DNA of 64,000 nt from Haliscomenobacter sp. (GCF_965225875.1 NZ_CBDDBS010000003.1:2320701-2384700); one strand, 5' to 3'; shown: positions 375-32,459, counted from the stretch's first letter. Numbers and translations: made by a program. Notes: a model not told the origin generated them from the letters alone.

Positions 375-2039
375 TTACTTCTTTTCCACAAAATCCCCGA
401 ATCGGCCATACTCAGCGTACAGTTTTTCATACAGTGCTGCATTGGCCGGAATGGGATGGTAAATTTTATCAAAACCATTGCCCATTACCTGCATGGCACT
501 CGCCACATCGGGGTATACCCCTGCGGCTACGGCGGCATACATGGCTGCGCCCAAAGCGGGAGCTTGTTCCGAGCGGGCGATTTTAATGGGGCGGTTCAGT
601 ACATCGGCCAGGGTTTGCATGACCAGGTCCGATTTTTTGGCTACACCACCCATGCCTACCACGGCTTTGATGGGAATGCCTTCAGCTTCAAAGCGGTCGA
701 CAATTTTTTTGGAGCCAAAACAAATCGCTTCGACCAGGGCCTTGAAGATCGCGGGGGCATCCGAGCCCATGTTCAAACCCATGATGGCGCCCTTCAGGCT
801 TTGATCTGCATCCGGGGTACGGCGACCATTGACCCAGTCCAGGGCGACGATCCCGGTTTGGGCGACGGGGATTTGGGCGGCAGCTGCGCTAAGTTGGGCG
901 ATGATTTTGTCTTCCATTTCGTCCAGAAGCGCCGTTTTGGTGGCTTCATCCAGCAACTGGCTTTGTGGCAGCAGTTGTTGCAATGGCCAGGTAATGACTT
1001 GTTTGAACCAGGCCAGTAAGTCGCCAAAAGCAGACTGACCAGCTTCCAGTCCCATCATACCGGGTACGATGGAACCATCCACCTGACCACAGATGCCGTG
1101 GACGAGTTTGTCTTGTACTTCATCTAGTGGCGCTACCAACATGTCACAAGTGGAAGTGCCCATTACTTTGATGAGGGTATAGGCTTCGGCTTCGCCGCCT
1201 ACTGCTCCAGCGTGGGCATCAAAGGTACCTACGCTCACTACCACGCCTTCGTGTAAGCCCAGGCGTTGCGCCCATTCGGCGGAGAGATTACCCGCAGCTT
1301 CATCAGCGGTATAGGTATCCTGGTAGAGGCGATCGCGCAGACCCGCGAGTTTGGGTTCGAGGTGGGTTAAAAAGTCCTCGGATGGCAAACCATCCCAGGA
1401 TTCGTGCCACATGGCTTTGTGCCCGGCAGCACAGCGGCTGCGTTTGGTGCTCAGGGCATCATCGCCTCCGATGAGCAGGTGGGTGATCCAGTCGCAGTGC
1501 TCCATCCAGGAATAGGCGGCTTGTTGTACGGCTTCGTCCTGGCGGATGGTATGGGTGATTTTGGCCCAAAACCATTCGGAAGAATAAATACCCCCTTCGT
1601 ACATGGTGTAGTCGATGCCACCCCAAGCACGAGCTTTGTGGTTGATTTCTTCGGCTTCGGCCAGAGCGGTATGGTCTTTCCAAAGGATGAACATGCCGTT
1701 GGGATTTTCGGCAAATTCGGGCAGGAGGGCCAAAGGTGTGCCCGTTTTATCTACCGCAACTGGTGTTGAGCCAGTGGTGTCAACGGTGATGCCAACAACG
1801 AACTTGGGATCCAAACCCGGCAATTGCTTCAAGGTGCGGACGATGGCGTCTTCCAGACTTTCTACATAATCGAGGGGATGCTGGCGAAACTGGTTTTGGG
1901 CAGGCTTACAGTACAAACCTTTTTTCCAGCGTGGGTAGTAGGTGACGGCACTGGCCAATTCGGCACCGTTAGCGGTATCAACCAGCACTGCGCGGACCGA
2001 ATCGGTGCCAAAATCAGCGCCGAGGACGTATCGATTCAT
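375..2039 (-). CDS. araB: Ribulokinase (FGGY carbohydrate kinase)
   Basis: 554 aa. N-terminal GADFGTDSVR phosphate loop, DTTGSTP, WKDHTA, DWVNGRRTP; adjacent to araD. Confidence 0.93.
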   Translation of the reverse strand: MNRYVLGADFGTDSVRAVLVDTANGAELASAVTYYPRWKKGLYCKPAQNQFRQHPLDYVESLEDAIVRTLKQLPGLDPKFVVGITVDTTGSTPVAVDKTGTPLALLPEFAENPNGMFILWKDHTALAEAEEINHKARAWGGIDYTMYEGGIYSSEWFWAKITHTIRQDEAVQQAAYSWMEHCDWITHLLIGGDDALSTKRSRCAAGHKAMWHESWDGLPSEDFLTHLEPKLAGLRDRLYQDTYTADEAAGNLSAEWAQRLGLHEGVVVSVGTFDAHAGAVGGEAEAYTLIKVMGTSTCDMLVAPLDEVQDKLVHGICGQVDGSIVPGMMGLEAGQSAFGDLLAWFKQVITWPLQQLLPQSQLLDEATKTALLDEMEDKIIAQLSAAAAQIPVAQTGIVALDWVNGRRTPDADQSLKGAIMGLNMGSDAPAIFKALVEAICFGSKKIVDRFEAEGIPIKAVVGMGGVAKKSDLVMQTLADVLNRPIKIARSEQAPALGAAMYAAVAAGVYPDVASAMQVMGNGFDKIYHPIPANAALYEKLYAEYGRFGDFVEKK

Positions 2040-16472: not shown

Positions 16473-16513
16473 GGGAGAACACGGAGAATTTTATCCAAAG
16501 CGACATTTCATTG

Positions 16514-16642
16514 GCACAAAGGACACAATGGAAAGCACAGAGGACACAAAGTTAGACGTAGACAAGGATTATTCTTTAGAAATATGACCTCTGTCAACAT
16601 CTAACTTTGTGTCCTTTGTGCATTCCATTGTGTCCTTTGTGC
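16514..16642. repeat. Palindromic element F: 43-bp inverted arms, each a duplicated ~21-nt GCACAAAGGACACAA unit
   Basis: Arms 16514-16556 and 16600-16642 match at 41/43 around a 43-bp spacer, between convergent pyrB and the GxxExxY gene. Confidence 0.9.
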
Positions 16643-16688
16643 TAAAAAATGCTGCTTTTGCTACTACCAAACACATTGTGTTCCTCTT

Positions 16689-17060
16689 TCACAAAATCAC
16701 GCGTCGCACCCCATCCCGAAACAGCAAGGTGTTGAAATTCATCAAAAGCCCCAAATTACAATCTGCCAACCGCAAATAAGTCAACAGTTGCGCCAAATGC
16801 ACATCGGTCAGGGATTCAACGGCCTTCAATTCTATGATCAACTTTTCCTCGACCACTAAATCAGCCCGATAGCCTACCTCAAGTTTCACCTCGTTGTAAA
16901 TCAAGGGAATCGCCTTTTGCTTCTCCACCTTGAGCCCCAATTGCTTCACCTCATAAGCTAAGCACTCCAGATACGCATTTTCCAACAATCCTGGCCCCAG
17001 GGCCTTGTGTACCTTCAAACCACACCCAATGGCCAATCTGGCCAGTTCATTCTCTGACAT
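16689..17060 (-). CDS. GxxExxY protein (PD-(D/E)XK nuclease superfamily)
   Basis: 123 aa with GPGLLENAY (GxxExxY), YRADLVV...IIELK (D...ExK) and GLLMNF. Confidence 0.92.
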   Translation of the reverse strand: MSENELARLAIGCGLKVHKALGPGLLENAYLECLAYEVKQLGLKVEKQKAIPLIYNEVKLEVGYRADLVVEEKLIIELKAVESLTDVHLAQLLTYLRLADCNLGLLMNFNTLLFRDGVRRVIL

Positions 17061-17159
17061 AAAACAACTTTAAAAAGTGAATAAAGAGAAAGGATGTGTA
17101 AACAATTAAGGCACTCCAAAAATAAGTATCTTTACGCTAATACCAAAACATCAGCTCGC

Positions 17160-18623
17160 ATGTTAGCCATCCAAAAAAGATTAGCACCTTCCTTTTACGC
17201 CCTGCTCAGTTTGCCCTCTACGGCCATGGGTTTTGCCTTGTCGGTTCAAATTTCCGCCTTAAGCTGGATCTTGAGTACCAAGTACGGCCTGGCCATTCAC
17301 GACATTGGCCTGGTTTGGGCAGCCGGGCCTATTGCCGGTATTTTTGGACAGGTTATTGTAGGCCTGATCAGCGACAATGTCTGGTTTTGGGGTGGCCGTC
17401 GCAGGCCCTTTATCCTGGTGGGGGGGGCATTGGCCGCCTTGATGCTGCTGGCATTGCCCAATATCGGCGTCATTTCAAAAGCCATGGGCACCGATGCCTT
17501 GTTGGGCGTAGCCATCACCGTGGCGCTCACGCTCGATTTGGCGATCAACATCAGCTTCAACCCGACCCGCTCGATCATTGCCGATGTTACGCCTGCGGGC
17601 GATGCTCGTACCAAGGGCTATACCTGGATGCAAACCATTTCAGGTACCTTTGGGGTAGCTGCTTATGCAATCGGCGCCATTTGGGGCAATTATACCCTGA
17701 TTTATTTTGGTGCCATCCTGGTTTTGCTCATTTCAGTGATCCCTCCTTTTTTTATCGAAGAACCTCGGACCTTACAAGCTGAAGCCGATACTGCCGATGT
17801 TCCTCAACAAAAAGCCTCTTTTTCACAAATCGTCGTTGCCATCAGTCCTTTATGGGGTTATCTGCTGTATGCATTGATTGGCATCATTGCCCGGCTTCTG
17901 GATCAACCGGTTAGTTCCCTGTTGCAAGGCATTTGTGTCGGACTGACTATTGGCAGCATTTTGTTGATCTTTTTGTTGAAAAAATCTGCCTTTGGCCCCA
18001 AATACGCCCATTTGATCGACTTTCAAAAAATCCTCGCTGCACATTCCTTTACTTGGCTGGGCATTCAAACCATGTTCGTGTACATGTTCGCCTACGTGCA
18101 ACAAAAAATAGTGGGGCTGAGCGATGACCAAATGGGGCAAGTGGTCTCCATCTCTTTTTTGATTTTTAATGCCATCGCGGCAGTGTTACCCGCCATTTTG
18201 TTGCAGCCACTGACCAGCAAAATTGGGCGGGTAAAAACCCACCTGATTTGTATTGCCATCATGGCCTTGGGCTACGCGAGTATATTTTTGTTTGGACATT
18301 CGGTGTTCAGTATTTATGTATTGATGGGTGTAGTGGGGATTGGTTGGGCAGCCACGGTAAGCTTACCTTTTGCCATCATGTCTCAAACCATTGATCAAAC
18401 ACGGATGGGGATGTTTATGGGTTTGTTCAATTTATCGGTAGTTTTACCGCAGTTGGTCGCCAGCCTGGGGGTGGGTGAAGCCATCAGTGCAGCCGAGGAC
18501 AAGGGTCTCATTTTTATCATTTGTGCCCTAAGTCTGGCAATATCTGCCGTTCTATGGTTGTTCATTAAAGACAGTCAAAGCAAAATTGAAACAGAAACGC
18601 TTGTATCTGGCGGAGGCCATTGA
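17160..18623 (+). CDS. MFS sugar transporter (sucrose/maltose-H+ symporter-like)
   Basis: About 12 TM segments, GLISDNVWFWGGRRRPFI, SFNPTRSIIADV. ATG 17160 preferred. Confidence 0.85.
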   Translation: MLAIQKRLAPSFYALLSLPSTAMGFALSVQISALSWILSTKYGLAIHDIGLVWAAGPIAGIFGQVIVGLISDNVWFWGGRRRPFILVGGALAALMLLALPNIGVISKAMGTDALLGVAITVALTLDLAINISFNPTRSIIADVTPAGDARTKGYTWMQTISGTFGVAAYAIGAIWGNYTLIYFGAILVLLISVIPPFFIEEPRTLQAEADTADVPQQKASFSQIVVAISPLWGYLLYALIGIIARLLDQPVSSLLQGICVGLTIGSILLIFLLKKSAFGPKYAHLIDFQKILAAHSFTWLGIQTMFVYMFAYVQQKIVGLSDDQMGQVVSISFLIFNAIAAVLPAILLQPLTSKIGRVKTHLICIAIMALGYASIFLFGHSVFSIYVLMGVVGIGWAATVSLPFAIMSQTIDQTRMGMFMGLFNLSVVLPQLVASLGVGEAISAAEDKGLIFIICALSLAISAVLWLFIKDSQSKIETETLVSGGGH

Positions 18624-18653
18624 TATATTTACTTTTTTCAACAAACACATTCA

Positions 18654-20537
18654 ATGAAGTCTGTTAAAACACTACTACTTGCTATTTCCATGCTGAGTGT
18701 TGTGACGGGTTGGGCACAAAAATTCCCACTCAAAACCCTCCCACTCGAAGACATGAGCAATTTCAAAACCACGGGCAGCAATTGGCAAATTGTGGGCGAT
18801 GTGGTGATGGATCGCAATGGCGGCATGAAAGTTACACCTGGCAAAGGGATCCTGCTCAACAATGTATCCGACAAGGACCACGACATTCTGGACCAGGCCA
18901 ACAAAAAACAGGATTGGGCTACCGTCGAAGGTTACAAAGTGCTTACCGCCTGGGAACACGGCGACCTGGAATTGGAACTTGACTTTATGATGCCCAAAGG
19001 TTCCAACTCGGGCATCTACCTGCAAGGCCGTTATGAGGTGCAACTGTTCGACAGCTGGGGCGTAAAATCGCCCAAGTATGGCGACCTCGGCGGCATCTAC
19101 CGCAACTGGGAAAGCGCCCCTGGCAAAATCTATATGGGCAAAGCACCCCTGGCCAATGCAGCGAAAGCGCCTGGCTTGTGGCAAAACATGAAAATTTCCT
19201 TTCAGGCACCCCGATTTGATGCCCAGGGCAATAAAATCGAAAATGCCCGTTTGAACTCCGTAATCATCAATGGGGTTTTGGTGCACCAGAATTTGGAAAT
19301 TCCATTGCCAACCGGTGGCCCACTCGATCAAAAAGAAGTGCCCCTTGGCCCCATTTTCATCCAGGGCGACCACGGTGCGGTTGCTTTCCGCAACATCAAG
19401 TACCGCTCCCTGGGCTCCAAAGTGGCCAGTACCAGCGACATCAGCTACAAGTACTTCGAAGGCAAATTCAAAAATGCGGAAGAGCTGAACGCTCAAACCC
19501 CCAAAGCCAGCGGGAAACTTCCCGCAGTGACGATTGAAGTGCTGGATCTGGAAGATGTTTCCGGGGTTCGTTTTGATGGTGTATTGAATGTTCCTGAAGA
19601 TGGCTATTACCTGATGTCGCTCAATACGACTGGGGGGTACAAACTGCAAATCGACAACCAGAATGTAGCCTTCAACGAGCGTCCGGATAGTTGGTGGGAC
19701 TCCAAGCAGAGTAGTGTGCAACTCAAGGCTGGTGCGCATCCTTTTACCCTTTATTACTACAAAGACGCGGGTTATATGCCTCCCCGCCTCGGTTGGGTCA
19801 TTGAAGGTTCGGCCATTCAACGTTCCACTTTGACCACTTTTGGCTCTTATCCACCAGACCCCAATCCTACTTCACCCATCCAGGTGGCTGTGGGCAGCAA
19901 AACCAGGTTACTTCGGGCTTTCCTCGATTTTGAGCGCGACCGGGCCCGCCGCCTCACCCATACCATTGGAGTAGGTGACCCTGGTGGCCTGCATTACATT
20001 TACGACCTGAAAGCTGGCAATGTCGCCTGTGTTTGGCGGGGTGATTTTATCGATGCCACCCCGATGTGGAATGACCGTGGTGACGGCAGTTTCCGGCCGC
20101 TGGGGGTTACTCAGTTCACTTTTATTGGCCAGAGCCTGGGCATCATCCAGGGTAGAAGCGATGCATTCCCCACTACTTATCAGGAAGCAGACTTCAAAAC
20201 CAAGGGTTACGCCATCGAAGAAGCAACCGGTCGGCCAATTTTCCGCTACAGCTATAAAGGGATCGACGTAGAGGAGCGTTGTTACCCCAGTGTAGATCAA
20301 AACAGCCTGGTGCGGGAGATCGCGCTTAACGGGGCTATTCCTGATGGTGCACACCTCAAAATTGCCGAAGGCAAAGACATCACAGCCATGCCCGACGGCT
20401 CTTTTGCCATTGACGACCGCAAGTACTACATCGTCCTTGGTGGTGACCTGAAAGCGTCGATTCGCGATTTTAATGGCAAAAAAGAATTGGTTGTGCCCGT
20501 AAAAGCTGGCATTGCGAAGTTTTCGATTATTTGGTAA
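18654..20537 (+). CDS. Exported DUF1080 (3-keto-disaccharide hydrolase-like) + PA14 domain protein
   Basis: Signal peptide. DUF1080 motifs NSGIYLQGRYEVQ and QGDHGAVAFRNI. PA14-like RFDGVLNVPEDGYY...GAHPFTLYY. C-terminal domain uncharacterised. Confidence 0.8.
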   Translation: MKSVKTLLLAISMLSVVTGWAQKFPLKTLPLEDMSNFKTTGSNWQIVGDVVMDRNGGMKVTPGKGILLNNVSDKDHDILDQANKKQDWATVEGYKVLTAWEHGDLELELDFMMPKGSNSGIYLQGRYEVQLFDSWGVKSPKYGDLGGIYRNWESAPGKIYMGKAPLANAAKAPGLWQNMKISFQAPRFDAQGNKIENARLNSVIINGVLVHQNLEIPLPTGGPLDQKEVPLGPIFIQGDHGAVAFRNIKYRSLGSKVASTSDISYKYFEGKFKNAEELNAQTPKASGKLPAVTIEVLDLEDVSGVRFDGVLNVPEDGYYLMSLNTTGGYKLQIDNQNVAFNERPDSWWDSKQSSVQLKAGAHPFTLYYYKDAGYMPPRLGWVIEGSAIQRSTLTTFGSYPPDPNPTSPIQVAVGSKTRLLRAFLDFERDRARRLTHTIGVGDPGGLHYIYDLKAGNVACVWRGDFIDATPMWNDRGDGSFRPLGVTQFTFIGQSLGIIQGRSDAFPTTYQEADFKTKGYAIEEATGRPIFRYSYKGIDVEERCYPSVDQNSLVREIALNGAIPDGAHLKIAEGKDITAMPDGSFAIDDRKYYIVLGGDLKASIRDFNGKKELVVPVKAGIAKFSIIW

Positions 20538-20540
20538 TCT

Positions 20541-20631
20541 AGTTGAGGAGTTGAGAAGTTGAGGAGTTGAGGCTGCCGCGTGCGACCCACTCCTCAACTT
20601 CTCAACTCCTCAACTCCTCAACTTTCTCAAC
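20541..20631. repeat. Palindromic element A: AGTTGAG(G/A) octamer arms, truncated GCTGCCGC core
   Basis: Four octamers (20541-20572) face four inverted octamers (20592-20623), 30/32 match. It fills the whole intergenic gap up to the next ATG. Confidence 0.9.
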
Positions 20632-22611
20632 ATGAAATATTTTATCCAAACCGGCTTACTTTTAGCTGGTCTGCTTATCATACAGCTGTTTACCAGTTTT
20701 AGCTGGAGCGTAATTCCGCCGGCCAAAACACCTACGGAAGACGATTATTACAAAATCATCACCCTCCCCACTACCGAAGGAATGCTCCTGGAGGTGGGTG
20801 GGATAACCACTTTGCAAGACGGTCGCCTGGCCCTTTGTACCCGCCGTGGAGATGTATACTTGGTAGAAAACCCGGAAATGACCAACGGGACTTTGCCTCG
20901 TTATAAACTTTTCGCCTCCGGATTGCACGAACCATTGGGACTTGCTTCCAAAGACAATGCCCTCTACGCCGCCCAACGGGGTGAACTCACCAAGTTGATG
21001 GATACCAATGGCGACGACGTAGCCGATGTGTACGAAACCGTATACGCCTGGCCTGTTTCCGGCCACTATCACGAGTATTCTTACGGACCAAAATTTGCGC
21101 CCGATGGCAGCATGTTTGTCACTGGCAACGTAGCATTTGGTGACCAGGAATGGTGGCGGGGTGAAAGTCGGGTCTTTGGCCGCGGCTGGACCATGCGCAT
21201 TACCCCCGATGGCAAAATGGAGCCCTGGGCAACCGGGATGCGTTCCCCTTGCGGTTTGGGCATGATCGATGGTGAGTTGTTTTACGACGACAACCAGGGC
21301 GATTACATGGGCTCCGGGGGTATCTGGCACGTTAAAAAAGGCGCCTTCACCGGTCACCCCGCTGGTTTGGTATGGACCGATAAAATTGCCAACTCTCCGG
21401 TAAAAATGACCGCTGATCAGTTCAATGCGGTGGTCGATCCCCGAAAAGTTAAAAACTCAACTGGCGGGTACGAAAAACCCGAAAACATCGCCACCGAAAC
21501 CAACCCAAACACCCTTTTTGCCGTAAAAAGTAAATTGCCGGAAGTAACCTTACCTGCGGTTTGGTTGCCGCACGGGATTTTGGGCATTTCCAATTCTGAA
21601 ATTTTGCCCGATCAAACCAAAGGTGGATTTGGACCTTTTGCCGGTCAGGTTTTTGTAGGGGACCAGGGCCAAAGTCGCGTGATGCGCGTGGTGCTGGAAA
21701 AAGTGAAGGGTGAATACCAAGGGGTGGCCTTTGATTTCCGCAGCGGCTTCCAATCGGGAATCCTGCGCATGACCTGGGGTCACGATGGTTCATTGTACGT
21801 AGGTGAAACCAATCGCGGTTGGGGTTCAGCTGGAACGGCCACTTCTGGCTTGCAACGCCTGGCCTGGACAGGTAAAGTGCCGATGGAAATGAAAACGGTT
21901 CGTGCGATGCCTGATGGATTTGAGATTGAGTTCACCTTGCCCGTTGACAAAGCCAGCGCCGAAAATCTCGCTTCCTATTCCGGCAAAAACTTCATCTACA
22001 AATACCACCCAGTATACGGCAGCCCGCCCATCAGCGATACGCCGCTCGGCATCAAAGGGGTGAAAGTATCCGAAGATGGTCTGAAAGTGCGTTTGGTGAT
22101 CGACAACATCAAACAATACTACTTGCACGAAATCAAGGTGGATGGGATTCGTTCGCGTGATGGTTTACCCGTTTTGCACCCAACTGCCTACTACACCCTC
22201 AACAACATTCCAGACGGAGCTAAATTGAGCATGGCAGAAGTAAGTACCAAAAGAATGGAAGCCACGCCAGAAAAGGTGCTTGAAGAGGTGAAAGTTAAAG
22301 TACCCAAGGCCAAAAAGGGCAAAGAAACGGTAGAAGCCAAGGCACCTACTTACGATAAGGTACAACCCTTGTTGGCCAAGTGGACTTGTTTGGGTTGCCA
22401 CAACACCAACACCCGGCAGGTTGGCCCTTCTTTTATCGATATCGCCAAGCGCAAGTACAGCAACGAGCGCATCGTAGAATTGATTCACAAACCTGAGCCT
22501 AAAAACTGGCCCGAATACGCTACCGAAATGGCACCGATGTCTCAGGTACCGAAGGCGGATGCTTTGAAAATGGCGGCATGGATTAATTCTTTGCGGCAGG
22601 AAACACCTTAA
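20632..22611 (+). CDS. Glucose/sorbosone dehydrogenase-like beta-propeller with C-terminal class I cytochrome c
   Basis: Propeller motifs GLHEPLGL, GMRSPCG, YVGETNRGWG. Heme motif CLGCH, VGPSF and a distal Met region EMAPM. Confidence 0.72.
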   Translation: MKYFIQTGLLLAGLLIIQLFTSFSWSVIPPAKTPTEDDYYKIITLPTTEGMLLEVGGITTLQDGRLALCTRRGDVYLVENPEMTNGTLPRYKLFASGLHEPLGLASKDNALYAAQRGELTKLMDTNGDDVADVYETVYAWPVSGHYHEYSYGPKFAPDGSMFVTGNVAFGDQEWWRGESRVFGRGWTMRITPDGKMEPWATGMRSPCGLGMIDGELFYDDNQGDYMGSGGIWHVKKGAFTGHPAGLVWTDKIANSPVKMTADQFNAVVDPRKVKNSTGGYEKPENIATETNPNTLFAVKSKLPEVTLPAVWLPHGILGISNSEILPDQTKGGFGPFAGQVFVGDQGQSRVMRVVLEKVKGEYQGVAFDFRSGFQSGILRMTWGHDGSLYVGETNRGWGSAGTATSGLQRLAWTGKVPMEMKTVRAMPDGFEIEFTLPVDKASAENLASYSGKNFIYKYHPVYGSPPISDTPLGIKGVKVSEDGLKVRLVIDNIKQYYLHEIKVDGIRSRDGLPVLHPTAYYTLNNIPDGAKLSMAEVSTKRMEATPEKVLEEVKVKVPKAKKGKETVEAKAPTYDKVQPLLAKWTCLGCHNTNTRQVGPSFIDIAKRKYSNERIVELIHKPEPKNWPEYATEMAPMSQVPKADALKMAAWINSLRQETP

Positions 22612-22707: not shown

Positions 22708-23745
22708 CTACTTCCCGCCCGTATACATCTTACAATCCACTCTGAATTCAATAAAGCGCTGATTGTTGGTTTCCAGAATTTCAGTGATTTTCAAACCTGG
22801 ATCTACAATTCCTCCCAGGTAAAAGTTTCTTCCACAGTAGTTGTGCAAATCCACCATCGGTAGCTTCATGTCATTCACATAGTAGATTTGTGAAGCGCCT
22901 GGCGCCAGGGTTTTAGTGTTGGAAATTCGTCCACCTATCACCAGTTTGTCTTCGGGGAACTGCCCAGCAACAGCTAACGGCGCATAGGCCATTGGTGCAG
23001 CGGTATTGGACGAGGTGATGATGTCCACCATATAGCCATTCGCAGGATCAGTATCCGTACCAACAGCAGGGCCAGTACCAATGTTTTTTACCTCAATTTT
23101 GAAGTCAGAAAAAGGCAAACCAGGGCCACCTACGGGATTGGCCAGGGCCATGTAGGTAATCACGAGATCAGGGCGAGGTGCGGTAGTTGAACCACTGCAA
23201 TCCAGTTTCACCCGAACAAAGCGGGTATTGTCATTTTCATTGGTTTCAGCTACTTTTTTACCGGGGTCGGCAATAGCACCGATGGCCACGTAGCCCAATT
23301 GGCAAGGTTTAGCAATTACTTTGGGCATTGGGAAACTTTCCAGGTAGGTGTCTTCCTGACCAGGAGCCAAAGTTTTGGTGTTGCTGTAGCGACCGCCGAT
23401 CACCAGCATGTCTTCCTGGTATTCGTAGGGGTTAGGTACTACTGCAAAGGCGATTGGTGCACTGGCATCGGTTGACAAAACCAGGTCAACCATATAGCCT
23501 TTGGCGGGGTCATCCAGGGTGCCGATGGCTTTGGCAGAGCCGATGTTTTTTACGGTTACTTTGCAATTGACCGTTTCACCTGGCACGTACACCGGTTTTT
23601 CTGGAACAATATTGGTAATGACCAGATTGGGGGCCGCAGCGGTTAACGCAGAAGGATTGACCACTAATGGGTTTTGAGCGGATGCCAAAATTGTGACCAA
23701 AGAGGCTACAAAAGTGAAAAGTGCGTTGAAGCTTAACTTTTTCAT
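22708..23745 (-). CDS. Exported protein with two tandem CARDB-like domains
   Basis: Signal peptide MKKLSFNALFTFVASLVTILASAQ (ATG 23745). Two repeats of P(N/D)LVIT...VKNIG...DPG.K..E..E.(D/N)N. No T9SS CTD. Confidence 0.78.
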   Translation of the reverse strand: MKKLSFNALFTFVASLVTILASAQNPLVVNPSALTAAAPNLVITNIVPEKPVYVPGETVNCKVTVKNIGSAKAIGTLDDPAKGYMVDLVLSTDASAPIAFAVVPNPYEYQEDMLVIGGRYSNTKTLAPGQEDTYLESFPMPKVIAKPCQLGYVAIGAIADPGKKVAETNENDNTRFVRVKLDCSGSTTAPRPDLVITYMALANPVGGPGLPFSDFKIEVKNIGTGPAVGTDTDPANGYMVDIITSSNTAAPMAYAPLAVAGQFPEDKLVIGGRISNTKTLAPGASQIYYVNDMKLPMVDLHNYCGRNFYLGGIVDPGLKITEILETNNQRFIEFRVDCKMYTGGK

Positions 23746-23874
23746 TGGGATGTTTTTATCAAGGTTAAAGATGTTTTGATTAAAGACCTTACATCCCAAT
23801 GTGTCAAACGCAGTTTGTTCCGTTCCACTTTTTTTTATTTTTTTGTAACCATTTAGCAGCCGCCTGCGGCGGAA

Positions 23875-23960
23875 TTTTTCACCACAAAGGCACAAAGACA
23901 CAAAGACATTAAGCTCTAAAATGTTGTGTCTTTGTGCCTTTGTGCCTTTGTGGTGAAAAA
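23875..23960. repeat. Palindromic element E: CACAAAG(G/A) octamer arms with TTTTTCACCAC termini
   Basis: Arms 23875-23908 and 23927-23960 match at 33/34. Termini identical to element H. Confidence 0.9.
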
Positions 23961-24021
23961 AATTGAATGTGAAATCCACCGCAGGTGGATGGGCGCTAAA
24001 TAGTTATATTTTTTTAACTGC

Positions 24022-25104
24022 TCATACTCCCACTTTGTACAAATCAATCGGTTTTTCTTTGCCCTTCAGACTAATGTTGCTTACTTTTTCCAGTGAATAT
24101 GGTGGGTTCGACAGGATATCAACCAGCTTATCTGTGATGACCATTTTAGCGCCAAGCGCGCCACATTCCTTCTCGACCCGCGAGGTGGTATTGAGCACAT
24201 CGCCCGAGAATTTGATAGACTTTTTGATTTGTCCCATCTCCCCGATGATCACTTTCCCACAGTGGACGGCTGCTTTAAATTGCGGGATAACGCCATAACG
24301 GCTGAGGTAGGTGGTCTTTTTTGTTTCGATCACTTTTTCAAAATCCTGGTAACAGGTCAGACAGCGCGTTTCAAACGAACCACTGGGAAAGGTCCAACTG
24401 ATGATCACCTGGTCGCCCACATACTCTACCACTTCACCTTTGTGTTGGGTAATGACTGCAGCGATATCGTGGAAAAAATCATTTAAAAACCGGTAGAATT
24501 TTTCGTTGCCCAGCTTTTCGGCAATCGTCGTGGAATGATTGAGGTCCAGAAACATAAAAATCCGTTGTTCTTCCTTGGGGTTAAAATACCGCCCACTGAA
24601 CATCATCCACAGTTCATTGCTCCCGAAGCGTTCGGACAATTGCAGCCAAAAAGAGGAAAGCAGCACCAGCAGCAGAATCGGAGAAACTGGATGCCAAAAT
24701 GCAATCGAGCCGATAAAGTTTCTAGTCTCCTGCCAAGCCAGCGGATCGCCGATGCTTCGGCCTGAAAGGATACTATTGAAGGCATAGGAAATGCTCAAAA
24801 GCAGCATAAACAATAGTACCGAATAAATGGCAATCTTTTTAAGAATGGCTACCCAAAATCTTTCTCGCGTGATCTTTTTTTGAAAATAAAACAGTTCCAG
24901 CAATCCAAAAAGCAGGCTTCCTACAAACAAACCGCCCATGGCCGCAATGGCATTTTTTCCCAAATTGAATTCCTCCATGGGGGCAGTTTCTAAAACTCCG
25001 GGATAATTGGCCAGAAAAAAATATTCGTACAAGGCGGTCAACAAACCCGCTGTCACCCATATTACGCTAATAACCGTCAATTGAACGAGTTGATTTCGTG
25101 TCAT
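24022..25104 (-). CDS. Membrane-bound class III adenylate/guanylate cyclase domain protein
   Basis: N-terminal TM segments; FMFLDLNHST, YVGDQV, GDVLNTTSRVE (metal Asp residues and N-x3-R). Confidence 0.88.
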   Translation of the reverse strand: MTRNQLVQLTVISVIWVTAGLLTALYEYFFLANYPGVLETAPMEEFNLGKNAIAAMGGLFVGSLLFGLLELFYFQKKITRERFWVAILKKIAIYSVLLFMLLLSISYAFNSILSGRSIGDPLAWQETRNFIGSIAFWHPVSPILLLVLLSSFWLQLSERFGSNELWMMFSGRYFNPKEEQRIFMFLDLNHSTTIAEKLGNEKFYRFLNDFFHDIAAVITQHKGEVVEYVGDQVIISWTFPSGSFETRCLTCYQDFEKVIETKKTTYLSRYGVIPQFKAAVHCGKVIIGEMGQIKKSIKFSGDVLNTTSRVEKECGALGAKMVITDKLVDILSNPPYSLEKVSNISLKGKEKPIDLYKVGV

Positions 25105-25228
25105 CGTTTAGTGTTGTTGTTGAAGTAAGGATACACAATGCCTGCAATAGTTGCAAGAAGGGTTTAGGCAAGCAGGGTGACAAATGCGAAGAAACTTTTT
25201 AAATACTCCATTGCAGTTGGCTAAAAGT

Positions 25229-25262
25229 AAAAAAGGGCAGAAGCACATTCAAGCTTCTGCCC
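25229..25262 (-). terminator. Intrinsic terminator after the PAP2/haloperoxidase gene
   Basis: GGGCAGAAGC / GCTTCTGCCC 10-bp stem followed by a U-tract on the minus strand. Confidence 0.75.
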
Positions 25263-25293
25263 TACCATTTCAAGTATTTTAGACAGGGGGCCC

Positions 25294-26832
25294 TTATTCA
25301 GCTCCGTCTAGTTTTGCTCTATTGAGGCTGTATTGTGCAACGTTTTTACCTTGGGTGATCCCCACCTCCGCATCAAAGCGGTAGTGAATACCTCCCAAAA
25401 TCCGGGACTCAGCAGCTTCATTTGCCCAATCTCTCGCTTTTTGGGCTTCGTTGGGGAAAACGTACGCTACAACTTCCGCGGCAGCAGCCGAAAACGTGCT
25501 GTGCCCGGAAGTGTAGGCAGGAAAGTTTGGAGTACCCAGTATTGTCTTGAACCCTGGAATTGCCTGGATTGGCCGGGGATAATGGTAGTAATATTTCGCA
25601 TCCCAACAGCTGATACCTGCGTCCATAACCGCCATGTTCAGGTAGGCAAAAGTGCGGGCCGAGCGTAGTGGGTTAAATTTGTATTCGATCAATAAATCTT
25701 TGACATAGCGATTCCAGTGCCCTGGAGGGGTATAAGTGCCCAAACCATCTGACCACCAGTTGGCTATTTTGCGCTGTTCCGGGGTGATTTTTTTGGCAAT
25801 ATCCTGTAATTCCTTGGCTGCGGTATTAAACTCCGCAGAACCTGGCGCTGGTGGCGGTCCTGGGCGAACCAATTCCACATTCGGTACATTCCACATTTTC
25901 ACCTTACCAAAAAGTGGTGCCAAACCAACCGGGCGTACCGGGGTTTCCTGATTGTCCCATTGCCAGCCAAAACGTTTTAAAGCAGCGGTTTTAATCGAAT
26001 CCGAAATGGGTCTGGGCGCTTGGGCCTTGCTCATGCCATCCGTCCGCGCTCTCGCCATAGCTACTTTGGCTACTTCCACCCCAATGGTGGCACCTGCGTC
26101 GATGTCGCTTTTTACGTTCACACCTGCCCAGGTTAGGCTGGACATGTGTTCCGTAGCTTTAGCAGCCAGGTAATCCTTTTCCAGCGGGAACATTGCCGTC
26201 AGGATATCCCGTGAGGCCGTTGCAACCACCGCTGCGTCGGCTGGATAAGCAGGCAGCGATGTTTTTGCGTAGGCGGGTACAATGCTGTTGTCAACGTCTG
26301 ATGGCGCTTTGCGATTGAAGGTATACTTGTAGTACCAGGCGCTGATCAAACCATCAAATTGTGCCACACTCAAATAGGCCAAGGCCCGTGAGGTGTACGG
26401 TGGATGGGCAAAAGGAAACTGCGGGTATTTGCTTGGATTGGCAGGATCCGGCAAAGTATAGGTCCCATCTGCATTGGGTTGGGGAATGATGTTGTACTTG
26501 GCGGCCAATTCGAGTGCAATCTCGTTCCAGCGCAAGACCGGATTATTGGTCCAATATTCGATCGCTTTCTTTTGGTCGCTGGTTAAATTGGCCATTGCCG
26601 TTTTTAGGGCAGCCAATTCATTTTTATAGTCGTCGGAAGTGACGTCCTTAGGAGTGGGAATGGAAATTTGGTTGCCCCCGCTTAGAAGGATTGGTTTCCA
26701 GGAACCTCCTTTTTCATCCAGGCTGGCAAAAGTGTAATCAGCATAATCGGCGTGGGTCAGCAAATCTTTTTCACAAGAAAAGGCGTAAACCAGACCGAAG
26801 GTCAAAATGATACGTATCCATTTATTTTTCAT
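25294..26832 (-). CDS. Lipoprotein, PAP2 / vanadium-dependent haloperoxidase superfamily, internally duplicated
   Basis: Lipobox-like AFSC followed by EKD. C-terminal motifs KYYYHYPRP (KX6RP), YTSGH and SRILGGIHYRFD (SRX5HX3D). Confidence 0.85.
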   Translation of the reverse strand: MKNKWIRIILTFGLVYAFSCEKDLLTHADYADYTFASLDEKGGSWKPILLSGGNQISIPTPKDVTSDDYKNELAALKTAMANLTSDQKKAIEYWTNNPVLRWNEIALELAAKYNIIPQPNADGTYTLPDPANPSKYPQFPFAHPPYTSRALAYLSVAQFDGLISAWYYKYTFNRKAPSDVDNSIVPAYAKTSLPAYPADAAVVATASRDILTAMFPLEKDYLAAKATEHMSSLTWAGVNVKSDIDAGATIGVEVAKVAMARARTDGMSKAQAPRPISDSIKTAALKRFGWQWDNQETPVRPVGLAPLFGKVKMWNVPNVELVRPGPPPAPGSAEFNTAAKELQDIAKKITPEQRKIANWWSDGLGTYTPPGHWNRYVKDLLIEYKFNPLRSARTFAYLNMAVMDAGISCWDAKYYYHYPRPIQAIPGFKTILGTPNFPAYTSGHSTFSAAAAEVVAYVFPNEAQKARDWANEAAESRILGGIHYRFDAEVGITQGKNVAQYSLNRAKLDGAE

Positions 26833-26847
26833 GGCGAATTGGCAATT

Positions 26848-27774
26848 TTAGAGTTTAAACTGATAGGTTACTCCGGCACCCATGTTTTGGAATTTACCCA
26901 TGTTGCGGCCATCGATGATTTGGGAATAATAAGCCAGGATACCCAAACCCTGGATGGCCTTGATGCCTTGGAAATAGTACTGGCCAAAGAAACCCACCTG
27001 GTCAAACGACATTTTGTTGGTCGGCTGTGGCGCATTGTAAATCCGAATGTCATCGCCCGTAAGGCAATGAACCGCCATGTAATTGGCCTCCAGTTTCAAG
27101 GAGTTGTTGAATAGCCAGACTCCCACAGCACCATGGTAATTCAGGGCATTGGGCACATCCATCCACTCGGAATAGTAGCTACCATTGTTGTAGTAATAAT
27201 CCCGCTCGACCTTGCTTTGTCCCCGCCAAAGGTGGGCAAAGGCGCCACGAGCATAAATGCCATTATCAAAGCGATACTGCAGGATACCACGCAAGGTGAC
27301 CTCTCTGGTTTTGAGGCCAATGCTAAAGGGCATGTAATCCGACAAATAATTGGATACCGGAAAAGAAAAACCAGCAGTAGTCAAGAAGGAAATCTTGCCC
27401 GGGCCCACCTGGCGGTTGAACAATTCTGCCTTGACGGCAATGCCCAGGTCTTGCAAACCTTTGGCACCTACCAACTGGCCACCCGTTGCATCCGTAGAGA
27501 TGTAGGGTACCCCGGCAAGTAGATTGATTTTGTCGGTAATGCCGTAAGCAAACATCGGCATGATGATCTCCCTGGAAAAAGTGCCAATGTTGCCATTTTC
27601 GCGCAGGCGGGTACCTTCCCAGTATTGATCCCAGGAGCCAGTTTCATAAGAGGCTGCCAAACAGATTTCCCGCTTTTTCATCATCAGGTCATCAGCAGGC
27701 GTTTGGGCAAATGCCGCGCCCAATTGGCTGAGTAGTACAGCCAACACGAGTATGTATTGGAAGTGATTTTTCAT
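26848..27774 (-). CDS. Outer-membrane beta-barrel protein (putative transporter)
   Basis: Signal peptide, amphipathic beta strands and C-terminal GVTYQFKL. 15 bp upstream of the PAP2 gene. Confidence 0.7.
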   Translation of the reverse strand: MKNHFQYILVLAVLLSQLGAAFAQTPADDLMMKKREICLAASYETGSWDQYWEGTRLRENGNIGTFSREIIMPMFAYGITDKINLLAGVPYISTDATGGQLVGAKGLQDLGIAVKAELFNRQVGPGKISFLTTAGFSFPVSNYLSDYMPFSIGLKTREVTLRGILQYRFDNGIYARGAFAHLWRGQSKVERDYYYNNGSYYSEWMDVPNALNYHGAVGVWLFNNSLKLEANYMAVHCLTGDDIRIYNAPQPTNKMSFDQVGFFGQYYFQGIKAIQGLGILAYYSQIIDGRNMGKFQNMGAGVTYQFKL

Positions 27775-32349: not shown

Positions 32350-32459
32350 GTTGAGGAGGTTGAGAAGTTGAGAAGTTGAGGCTACCGCAAACGGTCGCTG
32401 AGCGAAGTCGAAGTGTCGCTCGCGGCAGCCTCAACTTCTCAACTTCTCAACTTTTCAAC
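32350..32459. repeat. Palindromic element B: AGTTGAG(A/G) octamer arms, GCTACCGC...GCGGCAGC core, nested GTCGCTGAGCGAAGTCGAAG motif
   Basis: Octamer runs flank the 8-bp core halves at 32381-32388 and 32422-32429, with a 33-nt spacer. Confidence 0.9.

Follow-up and report, generated by a model that had tools for sequence, protein, structure and literature searches.

A conserved DUF1080–PA14 and propeller–cytochrome c gene pair in Haliscomenobacter: a candidate periplasmic module for oxidative glycoside cleavage

The window analyzed here is a 64,000-nucleotide stretch of an 8.37-Mb, three-contig genome of Haliscomenobacter sp. (GCF_965225875.1, NZ_CBDDBS010000003.1:2320701-2384700), whose nearest public loci are labelled Haliscomenobacter or Saprospiraceae. 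Within it lie three co-oriented genes on the plus strand, encoding a sugar transporter of the major facilitator superfamily (MFS; gene 1), an exported protein with DUF1080 and PA14 domains (gene 2), and a six-blade propeller fused to a cytochrome c domain (gene 3). A preliminary description, made from the sequence of this stretch, had read the three genes as one operon for a possible variant of the oxidative (3-keto) disaccharide pathway, in which the propeller may supply the oxidation. Its three co-oriented open reading frames (ORFs) are indeed present at the positions given in Table 1, separated by gaps of 30 bp and 94 bp; the question addressed below is which of these genes belong together, and what they might do.

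The gene pair and its transporter

In a scan for gene 3 orthologues that took one genome per species, 80 loci with 64–97% identity were recovered from Haliscomenobacter, other Saprospiraceae and many Cytophagales, the carriers including Ohtaekwangia, Chryseolinea, Dawidia, Parachryseolinea, Marinoscillum, Imperialibacter and metagenome-assembled genomes (MAGs) of Cyclobacteriaceae. A gene 2 homologue lies directly upstream of gene 3 at 77 of the 80 loci by ORF clustering and at 74 by tblastn, and at five of the six loci missed by the latter hardly any DNA, if any, precedes the match. Across genomes the two genes are usually spaced by 10–30 bp. No neighbour other than gene 2 is conserved among these loci, the next commonest being an M20 peptidase (39 loci), SPOR and SecA genes, and galK/galT (12 loci). 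Neighbourhood conservation, which the preliminary description had singled out for analysis, is thus a property of genes 2 and 3, and that these two genes constitute a functional unit is close to certain. Across orders, gene 3 is 65–73% identical to its Cytophagales orthologues (within L006–L085). As a separate observation, it reaches just 56–62% identity with its matches in two further genera of the host family (G024 and G105), and of the 121 genomes sampled in the host order no more than 3, this genome included, have a strong match. Such a patchy distribution could stem from inter-order transfer of the pair.

The transporter gene follows a different pattern. Its product matches MFS_1 (96.5 bits) and MFS_2 in Pfam, scores 58 bits against the NCBIfam profile TIGR01301 (GPH_sucrose), under the cut-off of 511, and has homologues named at their source as SLC45 family MFS or maltose/maltooligosaccharide transporters. 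Because these homologues are 486–487 amino acids long, the start at 17160 is favoured over an ATG at 17094. The genome holds a single close copy of the gene. It adjoins the gene 2–gene 3 pair in Haliscomenobacter loci only (L007–L012 and L098); a second species of the genus keeps the arrangement even though its three proteins are just 64, 60 and 79% identical to those in the window. In three other genera of the family (L099–L101), by contrast, MFS orthologues adjoin GH13 pullulanase or cyclomaltodextrinase genes. The transporter is therefore a genus-specific recruit, accessory to the locus as it occurs in Haliscomenobacter, and its presence hints at alpha-glucosides. Since it stands beside the pair in Haliscomenobacter alone, the three-gene operon was rejected as the conserved unit: of the module originally proposed, the DUF1080–propeller part is co-conserved, and the transporter part is linked to it within a single genus.

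The 30-bp gap between genes 1 and 2 has almost the same sequence at L007, L009 and L010, and a terminator scan found no terminator-like site in it. The TATATTTA box that it carries might be read as a Bacteroidota-type −7 box. A sigma-70 promoter and terminator scan of the plus strand yielded nothing informative, the sigma-70 consensus being unsuited to Bacteroidota; co-transcription of the genes is presumed. The 94-bp gap between genes 2 and 3 is occupied by a hairpin, repeat A, with a folding energy of −54.8 kcal/mol (z = −8.5), whose GTTGAGRA octamer palindrome is matched 10 times in the window (0.01 expected); a second copy of the octamer array lies at 32359–32451. Repeat A is found in this gap in the window and in two near-identical MAGs only (L006, L007), and is missing at L008–L011, where the gap is 17–20 bp, the native spacing in close relatives. 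By these comparisons repeat A is a recent insertion of a genome-wide hairpin repeat between two tightly linked genes, and its presence or absence among Haliscomenobacter genomes gives a dated insertion. As close relatives do without it in the same gap, it was rejected as a designed regulatory element of the operon.

Table 1. Genes, repeats and modelled protein domains of the locus; nucleotide positions count from the first letter of the window
Feature	Position	Strand	Basis
Gene 1, SLC45-type MFS sugar transporter	17160..18623	+	ORF, 487 aa; MFS_1, MFS_2
MFS–DUF1080 intergenic gap, 30 bp, carrying the TATATTTA box	18624..18653	+	Gap sequence
Gene 2, exported DUF1080 + PA14 + C-terminal beta-domain protein	18654..20537	+	ORF, 627 aa
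Gene 2 domains	DUF1080 jelly roll, residues ~30–255; PA14, ~260–390; conserved C-terminal beta domain, ~400–627		AlphaFold2 model
Repeat A, hairpin, inverted array of GTTGAGRA octamers	20542..20622	no strand	Between genes 2 and 3
Gene 3, membrane-anchored or exported sGDH-like six-blade propeller + cytochrome c	20632..22611	+	ORF, 659 aa
Gene 3 domains	Propeller, residues 35–415; beta-sandwich, 420–525; linker; class I cytochrome c, 574–655		AlphaFold2 model
aa, amino acids; sGDH, soluble glucose dehydrogenase.

Domains, fusions and a paralogous pair

Gene 2 encodes a protein with a hydrophobic, signal-like N-terminal segment that matches PF06439 (3keto-disac_hyd/DUF1080) at 81.8 bits (cut-off 26.8; profile positions 40–185 of 187) and PF07691 (PA14) at 27.9 bits (cut-off 24), as expected of the exported DUF1080–PA14 protein that the preliminary description had envisaged. 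Its AlphaFold2 model has a mean predicted local distance difference test score (pLDDT) of 85. In Foldseek, the model matches the DUF1080 structures 4qhz (the best), 8tda (BT2), 8v31 (AL2) and 8rr2, the last a 3-keto-glycoside eliminase/hydratase; its PA14 domain matches the sugar-binding PA14 structures 6x8a and 6x8d (174 columns, 3.1 Å root-mean-square deviation), and profile matches in the PDB add 6qdi and 6qe7. Alignment by hhalign with the canonical DUF1080 proteins of this genome gives a probability of 99.3%. The C-terminal part is DUF6797-like, an Atlas lead only (score 0.90). A direct PDB sequence-profile search of gene 2 returned 4qhz alone and no match to BT2157, the DUF1080 protein for which eight conserved active-site or metal-site residues are reported: E103, N134, E164, Q166, Y190, K245, Q273 and H275 (bioRxiv 10.1101/2024.03.25.586180). 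Mapped instead through a canonical DUF1080 paralogue, five of the eight are kept, N118, E128, Q130, Y160 and Q237 of gene 2 corresponding to N134, E164, Q166, Y190 and Q273, and all five are invariant across the gene 2 family; E103 falls beyond the aligned part. DUF1080 proteins, taken in the preliminary description for 3-keto-disaccharide hydrolases, are now described as 3-keto-glycoside 1,2-lyases/hydratases (bioRxiv 10.1101/2024.03.25.586180).

Gene 3 matches PF23500 (DUF7133) at 36.1 bits (cut-off 27) over profile positions 70–209 of 385. Toward its C-terminus a CLGCH sequence at residues 586–590 provides the CxxCH motif at which haem attachment is predicted, in a region that the model shows as helical (residues 574–653); the match of gene 3 to PF00034 stays below the cut-off (17.7 against 21.3 bits), and most orthologues carry this domain. 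The AlphaFold2 model, with a mean pLDDT of 90.8 and an N-terminal helix at residues 2–22, has as its top structural matches in VIA-align 2ism (Z 27.9), 3a9g (27.4), 3das (26.6) and the Escherichia coli aldose sugar dehydrogenase Asd (2g8s, 25.7), with six-blade lactonases coming next at Z 23–24. Against a comparison profile made from YliI together with four GSDH proteins encoded in this genome, the gene 3 family profile aligns with an hhalign probability of 99.2% (E = 3e-18), so the propeller is homologous to the soluble glucose/aldose dehydrogenases that depend on pyrroloquinoline quinone (PQQ). The sorbosone/glucose-dehydrogenase-like propeller with a fused cytochrome that had been described at the outset is thereby recovered in both fold and motif. 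Within sequence families, gene 3 itself has no match to Pfam GSDH (PF07995), found in 14 of 57 propeller relatives, and its score against the PVC-type haem-binding profile TIGR02604 of NCBIfam is 31.3 bits, where the cut-off is 122.2.

How the two proteins relate to each other can be read from their relatives. Among 1.84 billion representatives searched, 3948 relatives of gene 3 were found, and residues 30–530, comprising the propeller and the beta-sandwich, act as a module seen in many architectures. Fusion partners were counted in the 57 long representatives of the propeller family: DUF1080 occurs in 16, cytochrome c in 10, ThuA in 6, and PA14 and a plastocyanin/azurin-type copper domain (cupredoxin) in 3 each, with CBM6 and CBM35 also present. 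Hidden Markov models made separately for the three gene 2 domains all match propeller fusions, and in one protein (P0175) a DUF1080 domain of gene 2's own subtype directly follows the propeller (E = 1e-53). Given these fusions in other bacteria, genes 2 and 3 are the split form of single-chain enzymes.

The genome also holds a paralogous pair ~480 kb away (G000:C3 ~2820197-2824124). Its DUF1080 protein, of 613 aa, is 37% identical to gene 2 over the full length, and its propeller, of 685 aa, is ~50% identical to gene 3 and retains the conserved polar propeller residues. Where gene 3 has a cytochrome, however, this propeller ends in an azurin-like cupredoxin whose ligands form a C-x4-H-x3-M motif. 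Two periplasmic carriers of single electrons, haem c and azurin-like copper, thus replace each other between the paralogues, and for this reason the propeller is likely a redox enzyme; at the level of sequence, the swap is strongly the best argument for that assignment. The paralogous locus (G000:C3:2818866-2829333; L097 6866-17333) runs from a CNT-type nucleoside transporter through the DUF1080 and propeller–cupredoxin genes to SusC/SusD, and the nucleoside transporter raises the question of action on nucleosides or other N-glycosides.

Surroundings in the genome and in the window

The gene families concerned are expanded in this genome, which has 20 DUF1080, 12 DUF7133 and 9 GSDH matches in total. 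Eighteen of the DUF1080 matches reach the Pfam cut-off, only two divergent ones adjoin a propeller, and several others lie near Gfo/Idh/MocA genes. Among the canonical DUF7133 propellers, 4 of 10 lie within 8 kb of a gene for a xylose-isomerase-like TIM barrel, the fold of 3-keto-beta-glucoside lyases, against ~0.5 expected by chance, and 2 of 10 lie near a Gfo/Idh/MocA gene, both among those same four. The four (861–1227 aa; G000:C3:2778026, C2:3808717, C3:650250 and C2:2074676) represent further candidate oxidative glycoside loci. Within the window, in contrast, domain searches run on the genome itself found no Gfo/Idh/MocA, xylose-isomerase-like TIM barrel or GMC match, in keeping with the earlier remark that none of the usual Gfo/Idh/MocA or flavin dehydrogenases is encoded here. 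Elsewhere, at L086 (G000:C2:3383028-3384002), a canonical GSDH-family dehydrogenase (429 bits) bears an N-terminal CxxCH cytochrome c domain; a classical enzyme of the sGDH type, likewise fused to cytochrome c, is therefore present in the bacterium as well.

Just upstream of gene 1, on the minus strand, lies a PD-(D/E)XK_3 nuclease-like gene (16689-17060), with long palindromic repeats beside it at ~16500-16660 (region 16473-17060). Downstream and convergent, the minus-strand genes of 22708-27774 encode a CARDB-domain protein (423 aa), an adenylate/guanylate cyclase (360 aa), a PAP2/vanadium-haloperoxidase-like protein (512 aa) and a 308-aa ORF. Their synteny extends within Haliscomenobacter only, and the cyclase is absent from some relatives (L009, L010).

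Candidate mechanism, rivals and known systems

Taken together, genes 2 and 3 can be pictured as a two-protein periplasmic module for oxidative glycoside cleavage. In such a module the propeller would oxidise a sugar hydroxyl of a glycoside, presumably at C3, while its PA14/DUF1080 partner would help to bind that glycoside. Electrons would exit through the fused cytochrome c to the respiratory chain, or through the azurin-like copper domain in the paralogue, and the DUF1080 domain would split the activated (keto) glycoside by elimination and hydration. The SLC45-type, maltose-family MFS recruited upstream in Haliscomenobacter would probably import the product or the substrate. That the propeller oxidises the glycoside, that the electrons reach the respiratory chain and that DUF1080 cleaves the activated glycoside is a proposition whose chances we put at an even balance. 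In outline it preserves the idea of the preliminary description, which on the available sequences appears to be the best-supported reading, and the pair is probably a widespread, uncharacterised variant of periplasmic oxidative glycoside cleavage. The propeller's part in it, as an alternative sugar oxidase, draws support from the homology to sGDH and Asd and from the carrier swap in the paralogue; the partial retention of the PQQ site tells the other way. The proposal is further favoured by the five BT2157 residues retained in gene 2, by the LacABC–DUF1080 precedent (PMC9007349), and by the TIM-barrel genes found close to canonical DUF7133 propellers.

Several observations do weigh against the proposal. 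Enzymes of the sGDH/Asd type are known to act at the anomeric C1 rather than at C3. For sGDH and CcPDH a PQQ site has been described (PMC6881789). Transferred to gene 3 by an inferred mapping onto the YliI motifs and an alignment of 16% identity that may shift by a residue, this site is kept only in part: the O5-binding Arg is R204, present in every one of the 120 sequences covering that column, but the catalytic His column holds E148, with a conserved H147 adjacent, the Arg–Asn pair has become Arg–Ser (S205 for Asn), the His column of the EHG motif holds N221, and the C-terminal Arg pair is out of register, G376 and L378 aligning with it and R379 lying one residue on. The preliminary description had proposed modelling of this site; the alignment is divided between the retained Arg and the altered His, Asn and C-terminal Arg positions. 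Two other residues, R352 and Q363, are invariant in the gene 3 family and have no GSDH counterpart. As for cofactor synthesis, pqqC had no match in this genome, nor in any control genome, which makes its absence weak evidence, and no pqqE match in this genome reached the cut-off. Because the site is partly kept, pqqC was not found and pqqE stayed under the cut-off, the cofactor is left to a choice: either PQQ, if it is scavenged from the surroundings and held in a modified manner, or another cofactor. On the DUF1080 side, gene 2 differs from BT2157 in having D239 at the position of H275, with an invariant H240 adjacent, and the loop that would hold K245 is deleted. The domain is divergent, with the second-lowest score among the clear DUF1080 matches of the genome, and the solved structure closest to it, 4qhz, is itself uncharacterised. 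Lastly, the only assayed relative of the wider propeller–cytochrome family, Lac161_ORF7, in which a TIGR02604 propeller is combined with HEAT repeats and a cytochrome c domain, was reported to be a beta-galactosidase (PMC5342196).

In the main rival reading the order of the two steps is reversed. The DUF1080–PA14 protein would then act first, as a GH16-like glycanase or binding protein, and the propeller, as an ordinary sGDH-type aldose 1-dehydrogenase, would oxidise the released reducing sugars at C1 to lactones and harvest the electrons through its cytochrome c. Fold and homology do indicate aldose/glucose dehydrogenases, and the co-conservation and the fusions are equally compatible with either order. 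DUF1080 orthologues moreover bear the NCBI label “family 16 glycoside hydrolase”, and the DUF1080 protein THTE_1561 is cited as an endo-xanthanase/lichenase (PMC9007349). What makes this order unlikely is that the GH16 catalytic motif is absent from BT2 and AL2 (bioRxiv 10.1101/2024.03.25.586180), that gene 2 retains residues of the BT2 lyase/hydratase type, and that among the relatives of the propeller there are ThuA fusions and neighbours of TIM-barrel genes, ThuA and the TIM barrels being components of the 3-keto pathway. A non-glycoside substrate, such as a periplasmic alcohol or aldehyde or a component of the cell envelope, with DUF1080 and PA14 serving as binding or scaffold domains only, seems more improbable still. 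It would suit the Cytophagales neighbours, where housekeeping genes (M20 peptidase, SecA, SPOR, DapF) stand in place of polysaccharide-utilisation loci, and the unusual conservation of the propeller across orders. It sits poorly, however, with the carbohydrate association of both PA14 and DUF1080, the invariance of the catalytic-type DUF1080 residues across the family, the relatives that carry CBM6 and CBM35 fusions, and the sugar or nucleoside transporters and SusC/SusD that adjoin the genome's two copies.

The beta-galactosidase report invites yet another explanation, in which the pair performs no redox chemistry at all, the propeller being a new glycoside hydrolase like Lac161_ORF7 and the cytochrome domain having a sensing or structural role. 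Purified Lac161_ORF7 hydrolysed lactose with a Km of 1.8 mM (PMC5342196), and six-blade hydrolases such as lactonases come just 3–4 Z units under the sGDH family among the structural matches of gene 3. Yet a swap of haem c for an azurin-like domain between paralogues is meaningful for electron transfer only, and Lac161_ORF7 is a distant relative, gene 3 scoring 31 bits against a TIGR02604 cut-off of 122. Furthermore, the Lac161 cosmid restored lactose use in Sinorhizobium meliloti but not in E. coli (PMC5342196), a contrast that could reflect a need for a cofactor or for cytochrome maturation. A pair of purely hydrolytic function is consequently regarded as very improbable.

A broader proposal is put forward tentatively and would, as it stands, have to be called somewhat doubtful: the sGDH-like DUF7133 propellers might be an unrecognised class of respiratory glycoside dehydrogenases with interchangeable haem c or azurin-like exits, supplying keto-glycosides to DUF1080 lyases, and with a cofactor site that possibly differs from the classical PQQ site. 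Were this true, the very large “PVC-type haem-binding” and DUF1080 expansions seen in Bacteroidota, Planctomycetota and Verrucomicrobiota would acquire a function. DUF1080 proteins and DUF7133/PVC-type propeller–cytochromes are present in many copies in this genome and by thousands of representatives in public data, and the propeller family is still without an agreed function; a literature search found no paper on DUF7133, and none tying a beta-propeller to 3-keto-glycosides. To our knowledge, the recently worked out 3-keto route of oxidative cleavage is known only with dehydrogenases that depend on NAD (Gfo/Idh/MocA) or on FAD (LacABC), the LacABC dehydrogenase being an FAD flavoprotein of the GMC type that is accompanied by a small subunit and by cytochrome c as a separate subunit. 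The pair thus poses two questions: whether the 3-keto pathway has a third, propeller-based dehydrogenase, and whether sugar cleavage can be coupled directly to periplasmic respiration. Compact and highly conserved, with fused forms and a natural haem-to-copper swap, it offers a clean, testable system in which to ask them.

Each half of the pair has recognisable relatives. With sGDH (1c9u), Asd/YliI (2g8s), 3a9g and 2ism, gene 3 shares the six-blade propeller and, by alignment, the PQQ O5-binding Arg, and with CcPDH (PMC6881789) and the GSDH-family protein at L086 it shares the fusion of a dehydrogenase to a cytochrome. It departs from PF07995 enzymes in lacking a Pfam GSDH match, in its extra beta-sandwich and in the altered residues of the PQQ site. 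The PVC-type TIGR02604/TIGR02603 proteins, abundant in Planctomycetota, Verrucomicrobiota and Bacteroidota and of unsettled function, similarly place a C-terminal CxxCH cytochrome domain after a DUF7133-type propeller. Unlike them, gene 3 is without HEAT repeats, measures 659 aa instead of ~900–1300 aa, and is strictly paired with a DUF1080–PA14 gene.

Among complete pathways, the BT2156-2160 and AL1-5 systems of Bacteroides and Alistipes (8tda, 8v31; bioRxiv 10.1101/2024.03.25.586180) resemble the module in the DUF1080 fold, in five of the eight active-site residues, with the His-to-Asp difference noted above, and in periplasmic location. In contrast to them, neither the locus nor the window has a match to a Gfo/Idh/MocA oxidoreductase or a TIM-barrel lyase, and the redox chemistry here would be respiratory, through cytochrome c, instead of a redox-neutral recycling of NAD. 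Lactose use in Caulobacter, which relies on the periplasmic, membrane-bound LacABC dehydrogenase together with a required DUF1080 protein (Price et al. 2022, PMC9007349), is, by analogy, the closest working counterpart of the pair. In this system, known from Caulobacter (CCNA_01705) and Pedobacter, a periplasmic dehydrogenase likewise passes electrons to a c-type cytochrome, a DUF1080 protein with a signal peptide is encoded nearby, disaccharides are served, and the DUF1080 protein processes the keto-glycoside (PMC9007349). What sets the Haliscomenobacter locus apart from LacABC is an sGDH-like six-blade propeller in the position of the dehydrogenase, a haem domain fused to that propeller, and a DUF1080 protein that also bears a PA14 and a DUF6797-like domain.

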